This document shows positions 13,314-19,487 of a stretch of 63,374 bases of DNA, piece after piece. The notes beneath the pieces were generated by a model. It was not told where the DNA came from, ran no database searches, and saw only the letters and a list, made by a program, of their open reading frames with translations. The stretch covers positions 1 to 63,374 of the forward strand of contig PAJM01000036.1 in NCBI GenBank assembly GCA_002706065.1, read 5' to 3'. The position numbers were made by a program, and so were the translations under genes. The stretch is from Methanobacteriota archaeon. GTDB taxonomy: Archaea; Thermoplasmatota; Poseidoniia; Poseidoniales; Poseidoniaceae. Every line of letters begins with the position of its first letter. The first letter of the stretch is position 1.

Positions 13314-13388
13314 TGGTGCGAGCGCCGGGACTCGAACCCGGGTTCAGGCGTTGGCAACGCCCGGTGATAACCACTACACTACGCTCGC
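13314..13388 (-). tRNA. tRNA-Gly(GCC), CCA encoded, no intron
   Basis: Reverse complement GCGAGCG TA GTGTAGTGGTTATCAC C GGGCG TT GCC AA CGCCT GAAC CCGGG TTCGAGT CCCGG CGCTCGC A CCA folds as a cloverleaf with anticodon GCC. Confidence 0.97.
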
Positions 13389-13445: not shown

Positions 13446-16400
13446 TCACTGGAAACCAAATCGGTCATGCCCTTCTTTCGGTGGTTGACGTTGCCGTAAA
13501 TAGACGGCTACACCGGCGAAAAGAGCCGCGACACCAACGACGAGAGCAATCAATGTAAGGGGCAATTCATCTCCCTTCGCTCCAAGAGAGTCGTCATCAG
13601 CATCTGCAACAAAAACGACAAACGAGGTTGGAGATGTTGCATCACCATACGAATCAGATGCTTGGATGAAGATTTCGTGGGCACTGATCGGTGTTGACGT
13701 TCGGATGGAAGCAGTGGCTGTGTAGATGCCATCGTTCGCCTCTTTGTCCAACCCTTGCCCATTGTCGTACAAATTCACCCAACGCTCGGTTTGTCCAAGT
13801 GGCTTAAGCAGACCTAAATCAGCACGCACGAGAAGGATTCCGTCAGCATCCGCAACCTGAATTTCGATAGCTCGCTCCACATTGGAATCAGCTCGTCGCA
13901 ACGGTTCAGTGGTCGCAAGGGACAGCGTTGGGGGTGTATTTTGAACGGTTACGGCCAAATCGACATCGGTCGAACTCGGCTGGAAATGATGTTCAGAGGT
14001 TTGGGTCTTTGTCACGAGTATGCTTGCACCAAGTTCATCGGTCAATCGTACCTTCAAAAGACGAAGGCCTGGCGTCATCCCTTGTGGCATGGTGAGCTCA
14101 CAAATCCAAGCCTCGACTTTGAGGCAGGGTGTTTCCTCTCCACCGTATTCTCGGAGGTCGACAACAACCGATTCCACTCCATGGAAGTCAAGCACGTCCA
14201 ACGTCATCAACGCAGCACCTCCACGGACGACCGTGTCCGGCTCAATGGAGGCACTCAGAATCCGAGGTGCTTGGTTCTCGACCAGAATGGTCGTCGAATA
14301 GACGTCGGTTTCACCCCACTCATCCACAACATCCACGCTGATTGAACGTTCTCCAACCTCCATACCTTGAACAGAAACCAAAGTGGTCCATTGATTATCA
14401 CCAATGGTCTGATCCCCAACGAGGCCACGATCATTCAACGAAACGGTTCCGAGTCCGATCGATGAAAGATCGACAACAACGCTCACAACGTTCCAATCAG
14501 GGTCGTCAACGGTTGCAACCAAATGTGCGGGGGATGCTCCTTCTCCGAACACAAGACCCTCCATGAGCGAAAGATCGAGGACGACAGGTGGATTGTTGTC
14601 ATCAGCAGAAACGATGCTTGGTGAAAGGATAGCGTCGACGGCTTGAGATTCGTTAAGCAGAGCGATTTCTTCGTTTTCACCGAATTCGATTTCGAATGAG
14701 CGCGTTGTACTTGCAAGCAGGCCCGTCAATGGTCCTTTGTGGACGATTGAACCTTGAGCCGTTCCTGAAACGCCGTCACTGTAGACTCCAGTCCATTGAA
14801 TGACGCTGAGATTTTTCGCGTCACGTGGCTCGATGCTTTCCTGGCCAGCCGTGACGGTGAGAACGATCCCATCTTGAGCAAGAAGGCGCACAACGTCGCC
14901 AGTTTCCATTGGTACAGGTGCGAATCCTGCTTCCCGCCCAACCGAAATGTTTCCAAGCGCTTCCTCTACTTCTGGAGGTGCAGGGTCACGTTCGATCGGG
15001 CTGCGTTGCGGGCGCTCGTCTCCACTTGATGGATCTGGACCTGTTTCTGTCCAGACAAGTCGCACGGTTCGGTTGTCCCAGTCTGCGTTTGTCGCTTGGT
15101 AAATGTACGAATCGTTGTGGTATGAACCTACCCCGCTACCGCCAAAGAAATTGCTCCCACCTGCACCGGTCACGTTGAACCACGTTTCGCTGTGAATTAC
15201 ATTGACATCATGTTCGACAAGGGTGTGGTTGAGTTGAGTTCCTGTTTGCTCAATGGTTTGAACGACACCGAACGTCCCTTGAACGTCGCCAGAAAGCGTA
15301 CCATCAACATGGACGTCATCGATTAACGTGATTCCGTCCTCAACACGGTTGTGAAACGTATACACCGTTCCGTTGACCACCATCGAAGAATTTTCTTCCT
15401 CATCTTCGAATCCAAAGGTTCCGTCACCACGGATTACATTCAATTGGTCAACGCGTACACCATTCTCCCATCGTTCCAGTGTTTCGAATTGGTCGAGTTG
15501 GAGGTTAAATTCTGAGCCTTCATCGGCAAGGAGCATGTCTGCTGTTGCTTCAATTTGTATGTGTTCTAGGACACGTACTCCGTCATGGTCAATGGTCTCC
15601 AAGAGCAATAAGCTGATGTCACCGTCGACATCGAATTGTGCATCATCTTCCTCACCATCGACAAGCAATGCACCGAATGCTTCCAATCGAAGACGTTCTG
15701 TGACAACGTTGTCAATGTTTGAACGATTCAGCAGGGCATCGACCACTGTCGCATTGATGGTGGTCACCAATCCATCCTCCTCGAGCTGCAACAAAAGATC
15801 ACCACTACCACGTGCCTGAATGACTTGCGATGTCAAGACGCCAGAGGTAACGGTTTCATTCTTCCAAAAGGATTCGAAATCAAGGTTTAACTCGGTTGTT
15901 GAATCATTGGTAATCTCGGACGTAAGCAACGTTCCATTGCCCAATTCGTATGAATTGAGAACTTCACCGATTCGCTGTTGCCACCCGTTCCCCTCGAAAA
16001 GAAGCATGAACGATTGATTGCCTTCTGGAGTCTGATAGTTCTGTTCAAGGGACCACGCTGTTGTTGTTGTCACTTCATGATCGGCCATCGGCTGGTTCCA
16101 CGAGCCCACAGTAAAGGTTCGTTCGACAAGGATTGGAGATGGAAGAGGTGTTCCGTCATGCCCATTGATGGTTACTTCGATGGAGATGGTATCGTTCCAA
16201 CCAACCATCGTATCAAGAACGACGCGGGCTGTTAACGTCGGTGTGTTCTCGAGGAACGTCGTTTGTATGGTTGGATCCAAATCCAATGAATCTCGCAAAT
16301 GTTCTATGCTGATATCGTAATCATGAGTTGAAGAATCAGCAAACGTCAGGATATAGGCATGCTCGTTGCTCAGCGCAGAAGTACCGCTCCAATCGGTGGT

Positions 16401-16496
16401 GATGGAGACCGTCGGAGAATCCTGTGCAGAGGCGAAAGAGGACATCGGCGTCAGCAGGAGAAGGAACACAAGAGCAACACTTCGAGAACTTCCCAT
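13446..16496 (-). CDS. Large secreted, C-terminally anchored surface protein (~1016 aa) with Ig-like and choice-of-anchor-X-like motifs
   Basis: Signal peptide MGSSRSVALVFLLLLTPMSSFASA; acidic beta-rich body; LNDRGLVGDQTIGDNQWT and LYDNGQGLDKEANDGIYT; C-terminal TM followed by RQR. Confidence 0.8.
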   Translation of the reverse strand: MGSSRSVALVFLLLLTPMSSFASAQDSPTVSITTDWSGTSALSNEHAYILTFADSSTHDYDISIEHLRDSLDLDPTIQTTFLENTPTLTARVVLDTMVGWNDTISIEVTINGHDGTPLPSPILVERTFTVGSWNQPMADHEVTTTTAWSLEQNYQTPEGNQSFMLLFEGNGWQQRIGEVLNSYELGNGTLLTSEITNDSTTELNLDFESFWKNETVTSGVLTSQVIQARGSGDLLLQLEEDGLVTTINATVVDALLNRSNIDNVVTERLRLEAFGALLVDGEEDDAQFDVDGDISLLLLETIDHDGVRVLEHIQIEATADMLLADEGSEFNLQLDQFETLERWENGVRVDQLNVIRGDGTFGFEDEEENSSMVVNGTVYTFHNRVEDGITLIDDVHVDGTLSGDVQGTFGVVQTIEQTGTQLNHTLVEHDVNVIHSETWFNVTGAGGSNFFGGSGVGSYHNDSYIYQATNADWDNRTVRLVWTETGPDPSSGDERPQRSPIERDPAPPEVEEALGNISVGREAGFAPVPMETGDVVRLLAQDGIVLTVTAGQESIEPRDAKNLSVIQWTGVYSDGVSGTAQGSIVHKGPLTGLLASTTRSFEIEFGENEEIALLNESQAVDAILSPSIVSADDNNPPVVLDLSLMEGLVFGEGASPAHLVATVDDPDWNVVSVVVDLSSIGLGTVSLNDRGLVGDQTIGDNQWTTLVSVQGMEVGERSISVDVVDEWGETDVYSTTILVENQAPRILSASIEPDTVVRGGAALMTLDVLDFHGVESVVVDLREYGGEETPCLKVEAWICELTMPQGMTPGLRLLKVRLTDELGASILVTKTQTSEHHFQPSSTDVDLAVTVQNTPPTLSLATTEPLRRADSNVERAIEIQVADADGILLVRADLGLLKPLGQTERWVNLYDNGQGLDKEANDGIYTATASIRTSTPISAHEIFIQASDSYGDATSPTSFVVFVADADDDSLGAKGDELPLTLIALVVGVAALFAGVAVYLRQRQPPKEGHDRFGFQ

Positions 16497-16550: not shown

Positions 16551-17507
16551 TCAAAGATTCAGAATGTAGGCAAAAAGAAGCGGTGCAACGATGGTCGCAT
16601 CGCTCTCAACAACAAACATCGGTGTTGATGCATCGATTTTGCCCCATGTGATTTTTTCGCTCGGAGGTGCGCCAGAGTAACCCCCATACGACGGTCGAGA
16701 CTCCGATATTTGTCCAAACCATGACCACAGTGGGACGTTTCGATCGAGATCTTGATTGAGCATGGGCACGACGCATATGGGGAAGTCGCCAGCGATTCCT
16801 CCTCCGATTTGGAGAAAAGCGAGGGGCTGTTCTTGACTCTCATACCATGTTGCAAGGTGCTTCATGTATTCAATTCCAGAGAGGACACAATCCGAGTCAA
16901 CCTTCCCTTCGATGGAGCGTGCTGCGAAGATGTTCCCCATCGTGGAATCTTCCCATCCAGGAACGAAAAGAGGGAGGCCCATTTGAGCTGCTGCGAGCAC
17001 CCACGAGGCGTCCATATCTCCCTCGCTTGAAGGCAACAACAATTCTTCTCGCAGCAGATCGTAGAAATAGAGATGGGGCAGTTGCCGTAGTTGACGTTCT
17101 GTAGCTGTCTCCCAAATTTGGACTAAATGGGTTTCAAGCGCTCGAATCGCTTCGTGTTCGGGGATGCAGACATCCGTTACACGGTTCATCTTCTTACCGA
17201 GCAGTTGTTCCTCATCGTCCAGCGACAACGCCCTCCAATTCTCAACAGTTACGTAATGAGGATACGCCATTAGACGGAAGATGTCTTCTTCCAGATTTGC
17301 CCCCGTACAACTTATGCCTGCAACGTACCCTTTTCGAATCAAAGGAGCGAGAAGTTTGCCAATACCTGCTGTACTCATTGCACCTGCAAGCGTGATGAAT
17401 AATTTCCCACCTGACTCAAGGTGACGAACGAGCGAAGATGACATTGCTGCCAATTCTCCAGCATTGAAGTGTTGAAAATTTGAATCGACCGTATTTCGTA
17501 TTCCCAT
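16551..17507 (-). CDS. Deoxyhypusine synthase family protein (bacterial-like clade; may act as homospermidine synthase)
   Basis: TLAGAMSTAG, SCTGANLEED, NRVTDVCIPE, PGWEDSTMGN, QIGGGIAGDFPICVVP, YSGAPPSEKITWGK. Confidence 0.9.
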   Translation of the reverse strand: MGIRNTVDSNFQHFNAGELAAMSSSLVRHLESGGKLFITLAGAMSTAGIGKLLAPLIRKGYVAGISCTGANLEEDIFRLMAYPHYVTVENWRALSLDDEEQLLGKKMNRVTDVCIPEHEAIRALETHLVQIWETATERQLRQLPHLYFYDLLREELLLPSSEGDMDASWVLAAAQMGLPLFVPGWEDSTMGNIFAARSIEGKVDSDCVLSGIEYMKHLATWYESQEQPLAFLQIGGGIAGDFPICVVPMLNQDLDRNVPLWSWFGQISESRPSYGGYSGAPPSEKITWGKIDASTPMFVVESDATIVAPLLFAYILNL

Positions 17508-17509
17508 GG

Positions 17510-17896
17510 TTACACCTCCGAAAAAAGAAATCGGTCAACGCTTTCTTCCTGCATCAAAACAAGGCCGGGGCATTGTTTGACAAGAGCATCTTTGATTTGA
17601 GTTACAATTGTTTGTGGATCTGTCGAGCCGCATGTAAACGTATCAATGGCCAACAGACCTCGGTCAAGGTAGCAATGTGCGCTAACATGGCTCTCATCGA
17701 TCAAGACCACTGCAGCGAAGCCGGGAGGAGAAACTGAACCATCGAAATTTTCGACATGGGCATGAACTTCACGTGCACCACTGTTCGAAACAGCCTCCTG
17801 CATGATTTGGAGCATTTGATTTCCATCAAACCCATCGTGTGGAAAGAATTCAGCATAATCAAGAAACACGTGCGTTCCACGGGCAGATGAAGACAT
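17510..17896 (-). CDS. Pyruvoyl-dependent AdoMet decarboxylase family proenzyme (SpeD/SpeH fold; substrate could be arginine or ornithine)
   Basis: GTHVFLD, VVLIDE/SHVSAH self-cleavage site, AIDTFTCG. Confidence 0.88.
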   Translation of the reverse strand: MSSSARGTHVFLDYAEFFPHDGFDGNQMLQIMQEAVSNSGAREVHAHVENFDGSVSPPGFAAVVLIDESHVSAHCYLDRGLLAIDTFTCGSTDPQTIVTQIKDALVKQCPGLVLMQEESVDRFLFSEV

Positions 17897-18907
17897 CTAT
17901 TCACCTCCCTTTGGTTGTGAGAAACCTGTAAACGGTTCGGAGGAACGCACGGGACCTGAAGGTTCCTTCGTGGTGTTCCACATTCCGTTCTTTCTGGCCA
18001 AAACATGGGCAGCGACCACTTTTGTTGCCAGCATTGCTGCAGTGAACTGTGTCAATGGTGAGTCGTGTTGAACACCGATTTCATTGACATCAGCACCGAC
18101 AACAACAGCGTTTGGAGCATTGAAAAGCGTTTGAATCGTTTCTTCAACTTGCCAATAGGACAAGCCACCTGGTACTGGCGTTCCAGTCGCAGGAACAAGG
18201 GCGCCATCAAGCCCATCGATGTCGATGGTCAGATGCACTGGACCTTCGATGGAGGAAAGCACCTCCAACCATTTGTCCCAATGCTGCAAACCATCTCGAA
18301 CAGATTGTGTATCTCTTGCAAAGAAGGTGGTTATTCTTGAATCGGTTCGCATGCGTTTGTGTTCCTCGCTACTGAAGGCACGAATACCAACTTGGAGCAG
18401 TGATCCAACTCCTGCATCGAGTGCGCGTGCTGCTGCACACGCATGTGAGTGGGCTTCTCCTTCCAATTCTTCTCGCAGATCACTGTGCGCATCGATTTGA
18501 ACAAGCGTAAGATTGGATAGATCATTCTCGACAAGTGGGTGGTGCCGAGTTGCTTCCATAATCGGGGGAAGGATGCCGTGTTCTCCACCGAGACACAGCG
18601 GAAAGCAGTCTCCCTTGAACCAAGGAATCAGATGGCTTGTCAATGAGTCGAGTTGTTGCAAGAGCGTTGGTTCATTCCCATCCCATGCTGGAATTGTATG
18701 GATGGAAAGACCTGCAGGTAAATCCTCGTTCAATTGAACATCGAACAATTCGACTTGGGCCGACGCTTCAATGCACGCTATTGGTCCTTGAGCTGTCCCC
18801 TGACGGTATGATGTGGTCAATTCATACAGCAACGGTAGGATGGCGATATCCACGTCGCCTTGGCCTTGGTCGAGACCCAGAAAGGTCGGTACGCCTTCGT
18901 CCTCCAT
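17897..18907 (-). CDS. speB: Agmatinase (ureohydrolase family)
   Basis: TTSYRQGTAQGP, LGGEHG, QIDAHSDLR, TIDIDGLD, TGTPVPGGL. Confidence 0.85.
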   Translation of the reverse strand: MEDEGVPTFLGLDQGQGDVDIAILPLLYELTTSYRQGTAQGPIACIEASAQVELFDVQLNEDLPAGLSIHTIPAWDGNEPTLLQQLDSLTSHLIPWFKGDCFPLCLGGEHGILPPIMEATRHHPLVENDLSNLTLVQIDAHSDLREELEGEAHSHACAAARALDAGVGSLLQVGIRAFSSEEHKRMRTDSRITTFFARDTQSVRDGLQHWDKWLEVLSSIEGPVHLTIDIDGLDGALVPATGTPVPGGLSYWQVEETIQTLFNAPNAVVVGADVNEIGVQHDSPLTQFTAAMLATKVVAAHVLARKNGMWNTTKEPSGPVRSSEPFTGFSQPKGGE

Positions 18908-19067
18908 GTTGTCCGCGTCCGCTCCGCGCTTCTAAGCATTCCCAAATCAAGGGCAAAAACGCCTTTGAAGGTGGATTTACATGAAAATCAGCCGATGTGT
19001 TAATATACATCGTCAACCAATATACAATAGTGTTCTCGGAGTAAAAACCGGGGCGGGGTGATGGAAG

Positions 19068-19487
19068 ATGGGAATGACACTACAATCGTTGACGCAAGCA
19101 ATACAACAACATATCGATACTGAAATGGATGCAGAGGTTGCTGCAGGCATGGCCGAGCACGCACTCGGATTCTTTGGATTCTACAACCGTATCATCGATA
19201 ATGCACTTGAACCAACGGACCGTAACTTGTTCTACATGTTCCAAGATTACGATCTCTTGACCACTGAATCGGAAGAAACGACCCTTTGGGATGGACGTGA
19301 ATGGCGCATTCACTACTGGAAATTCAAGCCTGACCTCAAAGAGCGTGTCGAATCCTACATGCAACGCCAGCGCAAGCCTGAGGACATCGATCCGTTCGCT
19401 GACATCTACGGCACGGATGGGCAATCCATCTGGACACGCGAATCTGAAAAGGTTCAGAATCCAAATGCATTCACCAGCGATTGGTGA
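19068..19487 (+). CDS. Conserved Thermoplasmatota protein (DUF6015-like)
   Basis: AEHALGFFGFYNRIIDNALEPTDRNLFY...ETTLWDGREWRIHYW resembles DUF6015 as I recall it. Confidence 0.65.
   Translation: MGMTLQSLTQAIQQHIDTEMDAEVAAGMAEHALGFFGFYNRIIDNALEPTDRNLFYMFQDYDLLTTESEETTLWDGREWRIHYWKFKPDLKERVESYMQRQRKPEDIDPFADIYGTDGQSIWTRESEKVQNPNAFTSDW

Follow-up and report, generated by a model that had tools for sequence, protein, structure and literature searches.

A conserved speB-speDA-speY operon of Marine Group II archaea that probably makes homospermidine from arginine by way of agmatine and G44G

The subject of this study is a set of three minus-strand genes, speB, speDA and speY, located in a 63,374-nucleotide stretch of DNA (hereafter the window) from a Marine Group II archaeon of the family Poseidoniaceae (genus g1), the genome assembly of which comprises 1.89 Mb in 45 contigs and is 83% complete. 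Marine Group II ranks among the most abundant archaea of the surface ocean. The three genes encode an arginase-family ureohydrolase, a pyruvoyl-dependent decarboxylase with the fold of S-adenosylmethionine (AdoMet) decarboxylase (AdoMetDC) and a homologue of deoxyhypusine synthase (DHS), and together they probably make homospermidine from arginine via agmatine and diagmatine (G44G), dispensing with putrescine, spermidine, AdoMet and pyridoxal phosphate (PLP). A sequence-only reading of the same DNA had proposed a possible spermidine-independent pathway. The pathway is not undescribed: the trio is the speB-speDA-speY cluster already known from this lineage. On the Marine Group II/III fosmid KM3_15_H06, Li et al. 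2023 (PMC10407285) found speB and speY in one cluster with a candidate speDA, and the identical gene arrangement recurred in a Ca. Poseidoniales metagenome-assembled genome (isolate 70165). Lineage, the three protein families and their arrangement are the same in the window, which represents another genome of the order.

In the proposed pathway, SpeDA would cleave itself between E68 and S69 to generate its pyruvoyl group and would convert L-arginine to agmatine, as assayed in presumed Marine Group II orthologues. SpeY would oxidise one agmatine with NAD+, hold the 4-guanidinobutyl group as an imine on K290 and pass it to a second agmatine to yield G44G, a reaction shown for the Thermus thermophilus enzyme CdmS and for six bacterial SpeYs. 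SpeB would remove both urea groups from G44G, giving sym-homospermidine, and the translation factor aIF5A would be served by a separate canonical DHS encoded on contig C14. The step assigned to SpeDA draws on orthologue assays from the same order; the role of SpeY follows from family membership, and that of SpeB from gene linkage and its being the sole ureohydrolase.

The three open reading frames (ORFs) abut with gaps of 0 and 2 nt, and the aminopropyltransferase profile PF01564 had no match in the window; both the tight packing and the missing aminopropyltransferase had been correctly read from the letters beforehand. The same GGAGGTG motif precedes the second and the third gene, an arrangement that would fit translation of the trio as one unit [Table 1]. 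All three products score under the NCBIfam equivalog cut-offs, be it for agmatinase, for SpeD or for DHS.

SpeDA, the single SpeD-like protein of the genome, matched the Pfam profile PF02675 (AdoMet_dc) with 60.9 bits and scored 64.9 bits against TIGR03330, the model of bona fide SpeD, under its cut-off of 75.65. Its self-processing site lies at E68/S69, and alignment pairs residues S69, H74 and C89 with S63, H68 and C83 of the Thermotoga maritima AdoMetDC, the HTWPE motif of which reads HCYLD in the window protein. Across 31 syntenic Poseidoniales loci SpeDA is 46-76% identical, and a homologue from a KM3 fosmid is 59% identical. Both SpeDAs purified by Li et al. 2023 (AIF02979 and DAC51064) decarboxylated L-arginine only, with no ornithine, lysine or AdoMet decarboxylase activity, and neither rescued spermidine synthesis in an Escherichia coli speD- strain (PMC10407285). 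Thus, as the sequence-only reading had allowed, the AdoMetDC homologue is most probably an arginine decarboxylase (ADC) rather than an AdoMetDC. That reading had named AdoMet decarboxylation together with a speE gene as the finding that would restore a conventional spermidine route; instead, the Marine Group II orthologues failed to restore spermidine in the speD- strain, and the 83%-complete genome yielded no match to speE (PF01564). Searches of the same incomplete assembly likewise found no PdaD-type arginine decarboxylase (PF01862), no alanine-racemase-fold decarboxylase (PF02784) and no agmatine deiminase. The SpeD-derived arginine decarboxylase of the crenarchaeon Sulfolobus is likewise a pyruvoyl enzyme of the AdoMetDC fold turned ADC, but by the phylogeny of PMC10407285 it arose independently, and it feeds a spermidine rather than a SpeY pathway.

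SpeY matched PF01916 (DS) with 140.5 bits over profile positions 11-287 of 288. Its residues K290, W288 and E284, within the motif ...SEKITWGK, correspond to K329, W327 and E323 of human DHS; K290 and E284 are invariant in our alignment A1, with K299 and E293 as their equivalents in CdmS. Two further positions, occupied by Asp243 and Asp316 in the human enzyme, carry N192 and Y277 in SpeY, as placed by motif offset in a sequence alignment only. Of 112 SpeY sequences, 111 have tyrosine where the human enzyme has Asp316, and in 110 of the 112 it is accompanied by GDF in place of the KHH motif of DHS.

Two sets of published experiments bear on what such a protein does. Kobayashi et al. 2024 (PMC10981699) showed that T. 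thermophilus CdmS (TTHA1570) uses agmatine only, and neither putrescine nor spermidine, coupling two agmatines to caldomycin (G44G, N1,N9-bis(guanidino)homospermidine), which a SpeB-type ureohydrolase converts to homospermidine; CdmS Glu293, the equivalent of E284 in the window SpeY, was modelled as the guanidyl binder. The window system resembles that of CdmS in its DHS homologue, catalytic lysine, guanidyl-binding glutamate, non-acidic residues at the Asp243 and Asp316 positions and a ureohydrolase acting last. It differs in having Asn192 and Tyr277 where CdmS has Phe204 and Leu286, and in a SpeY subfamily devoid of KHH; moreover, T. thermophilus decarboxylates arginine with a PLP enzyme, and its genes are bacterial. 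The second precedent is that of Li et al. 2026 (PMC13625781), in which six phylogenetically diverse bacterial SpeYs expressed in E. coli without SpeB accumulated G44G and no homospermidine, and the SpeY-linked ureohydrolases (DUH) were G44G-specific. The three-function module of these bacteria (speY-speB-speDA in Capsulimonas corticalis, ADC-speB-speY in Winogradskyella algicola) is the same as that of the window; what sets the window host apart is that it is archaeal and also possesses a canonical DHS and aIF5A.

When one genome per species was scanned, 596 relatives of SpeY emerged; beyond Poseidoniales, the best of them were bacterial proteins of Bacteroidota, Verrucomicrobiota, Acidobacteriota, Caldilineaceae and Planctomycetota that are 52-57% identical. 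One Flavobacteriales locus (L093) encodes a short ADC, an agmatinase (SpeB) and a SpeY in the arrangement reported for W. algicola. Maximum-likelihood analysis grouped all 46 Poseidoniales SpeYs in one clade (Shimodaira-Hasegawa-like approximate likelihood ratio test, SH-aLRT, 100) beside a Bacteroidota clade and put the genome's canonical DHS on a very long branch. Because the root of the tree rests on one very long outgroup branch, we make no claim as to whether the gene passed from bacteria to archaea or the other way. Homospermidine, one of the two outcomes that the sequence-only reading had put forward, is the likely product.

Several points weigh against assigning G44G synthesis to the window protein. 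The SpeY subfamily is without the KHH motif that bears human His288 and has instead GGGIAGDF and a remodelled loop of ~15 residues, as seen when this loop was compared with the KHH region of DHS by profile-profile alignment. His288 of DHS shuttles a proton. SpeY appears to have no obvious counterpart of this residue, and its chemistry could deviate in detail from that of CdmS. The protein also scored far under the NCBIfam cut-offs for G44G synthase (NF002699, 81.7 bits against 500) and for homospermidine biosynthesis protein (NF001980, 140.4 against 450), and the SpeYs and SpeB-type enzymes assayed in PMC13625781 are all bacterial, with no archaeal one among them. Since the bacterial members of the subfamily share the loss of KHH, we take it as a difference and not as counter-evidence to activity. 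Similarly, scores of only 85-116 bits are reached by the bacterial SpeYs encoded in ADC-speB-speY loci, from which it follows that NF002699 and NF001980 do not cover the SpeY subfamily. No structure of a SpeY was detectable by sequence in the Protein Data Bank (PDB), the best match being the Pyrococcus horikoshii DHS 7cmc (E 2e-11).

SpeB matched PF00491 (Arginase) with 161.5 bits and has a complete set of Mn-ligand motifs (GGEHG at 107-111, DAHSD at 139-143 and DIDGLD at 229-234); it is the product of the sole arginase-family gene in the genome. Its score against the agmatinase model TIGR01230 (151.6 bits) lies under the cut-off of 174.3. From its status as sole ureohydrolase and this sub-cut-off score, which bear on the matter indirectly, SpeB is predicted to prefer G44G over agmatine. 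As PMC13625781 predicts for DUH-type enzymes, the genome encodes one SpeY-linked ureohydrolase and lacks a canonical agmatinase.

The nearest rival to this pathway would make SpeB a true agmatinase and have SpeY condense two putrescines, or putrescine and agmatine, to homospermidine. Such a route is compatible with the gene order speB-speDA-speY, could call upon the 151.6 bits that SpeB reaches with the agmatinase model, and was the one drawn when the cluster was first described, in a study in which SpeDA was the sole enzyme of the cluster assayed (PMC10407285). We nevertheless consider it unlikely. CdmS consumed agmatine only (PMC10981699), the six bacterial SpeYs gave G44G and no homospermidine in E. 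coli devoid of SpeB, and a canonical agmatinase would, as argued in PMC13625781, starve SpeY of its substrate; moreover, the window SpeY falls inside the assayed family and SpeB under the agmatinase equivalog cut-off. Of the sequence of arginine, agmatine, putrescine and homospermidine that the sequence-only reading had proposed, the start and the end therefore stand, and the putrescine intermediate is probably wrong, every SpeY tested having joined two agmatines and not putrescine.

To place the operon in the context of its order, 151 Poseidoniales genomes from 22 genera were surveyed. A strong match to SpeY was present in about 146 of them, a canonical DHS in 147 and an arginase-family gene, almost always in single copy, in 148; PF01564 (speE) and PF02784 each matched in one genome only. 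In the 31 Poseidoniales loci examined (21 genera), speDA lay directly upstream of speY without exception, and in family f1 and five f3 genera the pair was adjoined by speB. The gene arrangement is not due to chance. Eight other f3 genera (loci L127-L134 in G027, G103, G043, G009, G087, G041, G113 and G031) carry speDA-speY elsewhere in the genome than speB, which they keep in a block composed of the genes for a 1034-aa surface protein, DUF6015, SpeB, an M14 peptidase and an M17 peptidase. As this block is ancestral, it is the speDA-speY pair that moved and not speB. Three genera (g4, g6 and g7; 14 of 14 sampled genomes) encode SpeDA and SpeY as a single ORF of 430-504 aa, in which the ES site of self-processing and the lysine of WGK are both intact. 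The fusion, which goes unmentioned in two Journal of Biological Chemistry papers on this pathway, speaks for a functional link between SpeDA and SpeY.

Further observations were made on individual genomes and proteins. The order's sole PF01564 match (50 bits) falls in an open frame of 807 aa and probably does not represent a spermidine synthase. In family f2, one genome (G004) is without a SpeY of the Poseidoniales type; its DS homologue is only 29% identical and stands beside an arginase-family gene, and the same genome holds the order's sole match to an alanine-racemase-fold decarboxylase. Either a replaced cluster or contamination (6%) would account for this case. In a representative protein library, P0161 and P0168 are two-domain SpeDA-SpeY fusions, and the 756-aa protein P0164 combines in one chain an AdoMet_dc domain, an amine N-methyltransferase domain of the NNMT/PNMT/TEMT type and a DS domain, the last being 49% identical to the window SpeY. 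The domain set of P0164 hints at a methylated polyamine product.

These observations bear on a second rival, in which the working product of the pathway would be something other than homospermidine: G44G itself, half-hydrolysed N1-aminobutylagmatine or a further modified polyamine. G44G and N1-aminobutylagmatine occur naturally in T. thermophilus (PMC10981699), speB is unlinked from speDA-speY in the eight genera mentioned above, and the three-domain library protein joins a methyltransferase to the two enzymes. Yet the retention of an arginase-family gene in 148 of the 151 genomes and the complete conversion of G44G to homospermidine by SpeB-type enzymes in all published tests (PMC13625781) make a different end product very unlikely, and homospermidine remains the product that we favor.

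The genome-wide search for speE and for a second DHS that the sequence-only reading had called for was carried out; it found no speE, as stated above, and revealed a second DS-family gene on contig C14. This gene encodes a canonical DHS, scoring 373 bits against a cut-off of 350 and retaining KHH, and its product is only 28% identical to the window SpeY. In the assembly the gene holds three ambiguous codons (X). The window SpeY, for its part, reached 117.5 bits with the best DHS equivalog model, the cut-off of which is 434, and is not a canonical DHS by either the model or the KHH motif. The two proteins have in common their fold, the NAD-dependent lysine-imine chemistry and the C-terminal ...E-x-x-x-W-G-K (PF01916; NF002294 for canonical DHS), and differ in the replacement of KHH by GDF and the ~15-residue loop, and in the substrate, predicted to be a small molecule for SpeY instead of aIF5A. 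An aIF5A with the hypusination motif GKHG is encoded on contig C17 (TIGR00037); a search with PF01287 was negative for it, but that profile also missed Haloferax among the control genomes. EF-P was not found in the genome.

With a separate DHS that passes its cut-off, and with the window gene in a clade of bacterial type, the other proposal of the sequence-only reading, direct agmatine-based deoxyhypusination of aIF5A by the window gene, lost its footing. In this third rival, SpeY and an agmatinase-like enzyme would use agmatine to modify aIF5A directly, following a proposal made for Haloferax volcanii. SpeY does keep the catalytic lysine, no spermidine route was found in the order by the census of speE and PF02784, and for haloarchaea a model that starts from agmatine has been put forward (PMC5178350). 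Against this stand the canonical DHS in the window genome and in 147 of the 151 genomes, the 28% identity of SpeY to that enzyme versus 52-57% to bacterial SpeYs, the location of the aIF5A gene on another contig, and the decarboxylase fusion in three genera, which fits small-molecule metabolism. We give this explanation hardly any chance, and retain homospermidine synthesis as the probable function of the operon.

The immediate surroundings of the operon were also inspected [Table 1]. The ORF downstream of speY probably starts at ATG 16496, 54 nt past the speY stop codon, with a signal-peptide-like N-terminus, and was not counted in the pathway. It encodes a surface protein of ~1016 aa that bears a choice-of-anchor X motif close to its C-terminus, matches no Pfam domain and is a conserved neighbor of the block across the order (31-90% identity). 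A tRNA-Gly(GCC) gene is the sole RNA-family match of the window. Upstream, the region between speB and the divergent DUF6015 gene contains A/T-rich TGTATATT elements. In all Poseidoniales genera sampled, including those in which speDA-speY moved away, the gene for the 139-aa DUF6015 protein adjoins speB; residues 25-87 of the protein are near-invariant across the order. Its AlphaFold model (predicted local distance difference test, pLDDT, 72) is a winged helix, with TFIIE-alpha and archaeal TFE-alpha as its best, weak PDB matches (E 4e-3 to 2e-2, template modelling (TM) score 0.4-0.5). The protein could be a transcription factor, its link to the operon being unproven.

Table 1 Position of the operon genes, associated elements and related features elsewhere (window coordinates unless a genome or locus is named)
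Feature	Position	Strand	Basis
speB, arginase-family ureohydrolase, predicted G44G (diagmatine) ureohydrolase, first operon gene, 336 aa	17897..18907	-	PF00491, Mn-ligand motifs
speDA, pyruvoyl-dependent arginine decarboxylase proenzyme, AdoMetDC fold, 128 aa	17510..17896	-	PF02675, processing site
speY, NAD-dependent DHS homologue, predicted agmatine-homocoupling (G44G/caldomycin) synthase, 318 aa	16551..17507	-	PF01916, residues, tree
GGAGGTG Shine-Dalgarno-like motif, 5 nt 5' of speDA ATG, within speB 3' end	17902..17908	-	sequence reading
GGAGGTG Shine-Dalgarno-like motif, 5 nt 5' of speY ATG, within speDA 3' end	17513..17519	-	sequence reading
Divergent intergenic region between speB and DUF6015 gene, 160 nt, presumed to carry both promoters	18908..19067	.	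sequence reading
DUF6015 gene	19068..19487	+	
Surface protein gene	13446..16496	-	
tRNA-Gly(GCC)	13314..13388	-	
Canonical DHS gene, window genome	G000:C14:9592-10542 (L001:1405-2430)		
speDA-speY fusion ORF	L018:4998-6326	-	
speDA-speY fusion ORF	L020:3645-5018	+	
Other speDA-speY fusion ORFs	L021, L046, L047, L054		
f2 genome without Poseidoniales-type SpeY	G004:C6:52597-54539, G004:C81:6-635		
Sole PF01564 match of the order	G143:C115:2086-2448		

The retention of a canonical DHS without a recognisable spermidine route raises the question of which aminobutyl donor feeds the hypusination of aIF5A. Homospermidine or agmatine from the operon are the obvious candidates, and uptake of spermidine from seawater may be an alternative source. 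We tentatively suggest, as a possibility somewhat short of even, that the operon is the only internal source of the donor, that the canonical DHS acts on homospermidine or on agmatine/G44G, and that the single ureohydrolase possibly serves both pathways. The active site of the canonical Poseidoniales DHS (...DGSLSGARLREAISWGK) offers a comparison in this respect: leucine stands at the human Asp316 position in all 11 sequences read (the C14 copy and L117-L126) and alanine at the Asp243 position of the C14 enzyme, which at these two sites resembles the agmatine-using CdmS of T. thermophilus (Leu286 and Phe204). The archaeal DHS chains 7cmc and 8put, aligned from the PDB, likewise have leucine at the Asp316 position, so that this residue alone is no proof of agmatine use. 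If true, a canonical DHS fed by the operon would answer the question, raised in PMC13625781, of whether archaea have DHS enzymes of both the agmatine and the spermidine type.

The cluster is real and conserved, though not novel, and the value of the finding lies in its correct annotation and in the order-wide census. The three genes are best annotated as speB (probable G44G ureohydrolase), speDA (arginine decarboxylase) and speY (G44G synthase), and the names agmatinase, S-adenosylmethionine decarboxylase and deoxyhypusine synthase are to be avoided for them. The census suggests that the whole order produces homospermidine and not spermidine, with no need for AdoMet or PLP.

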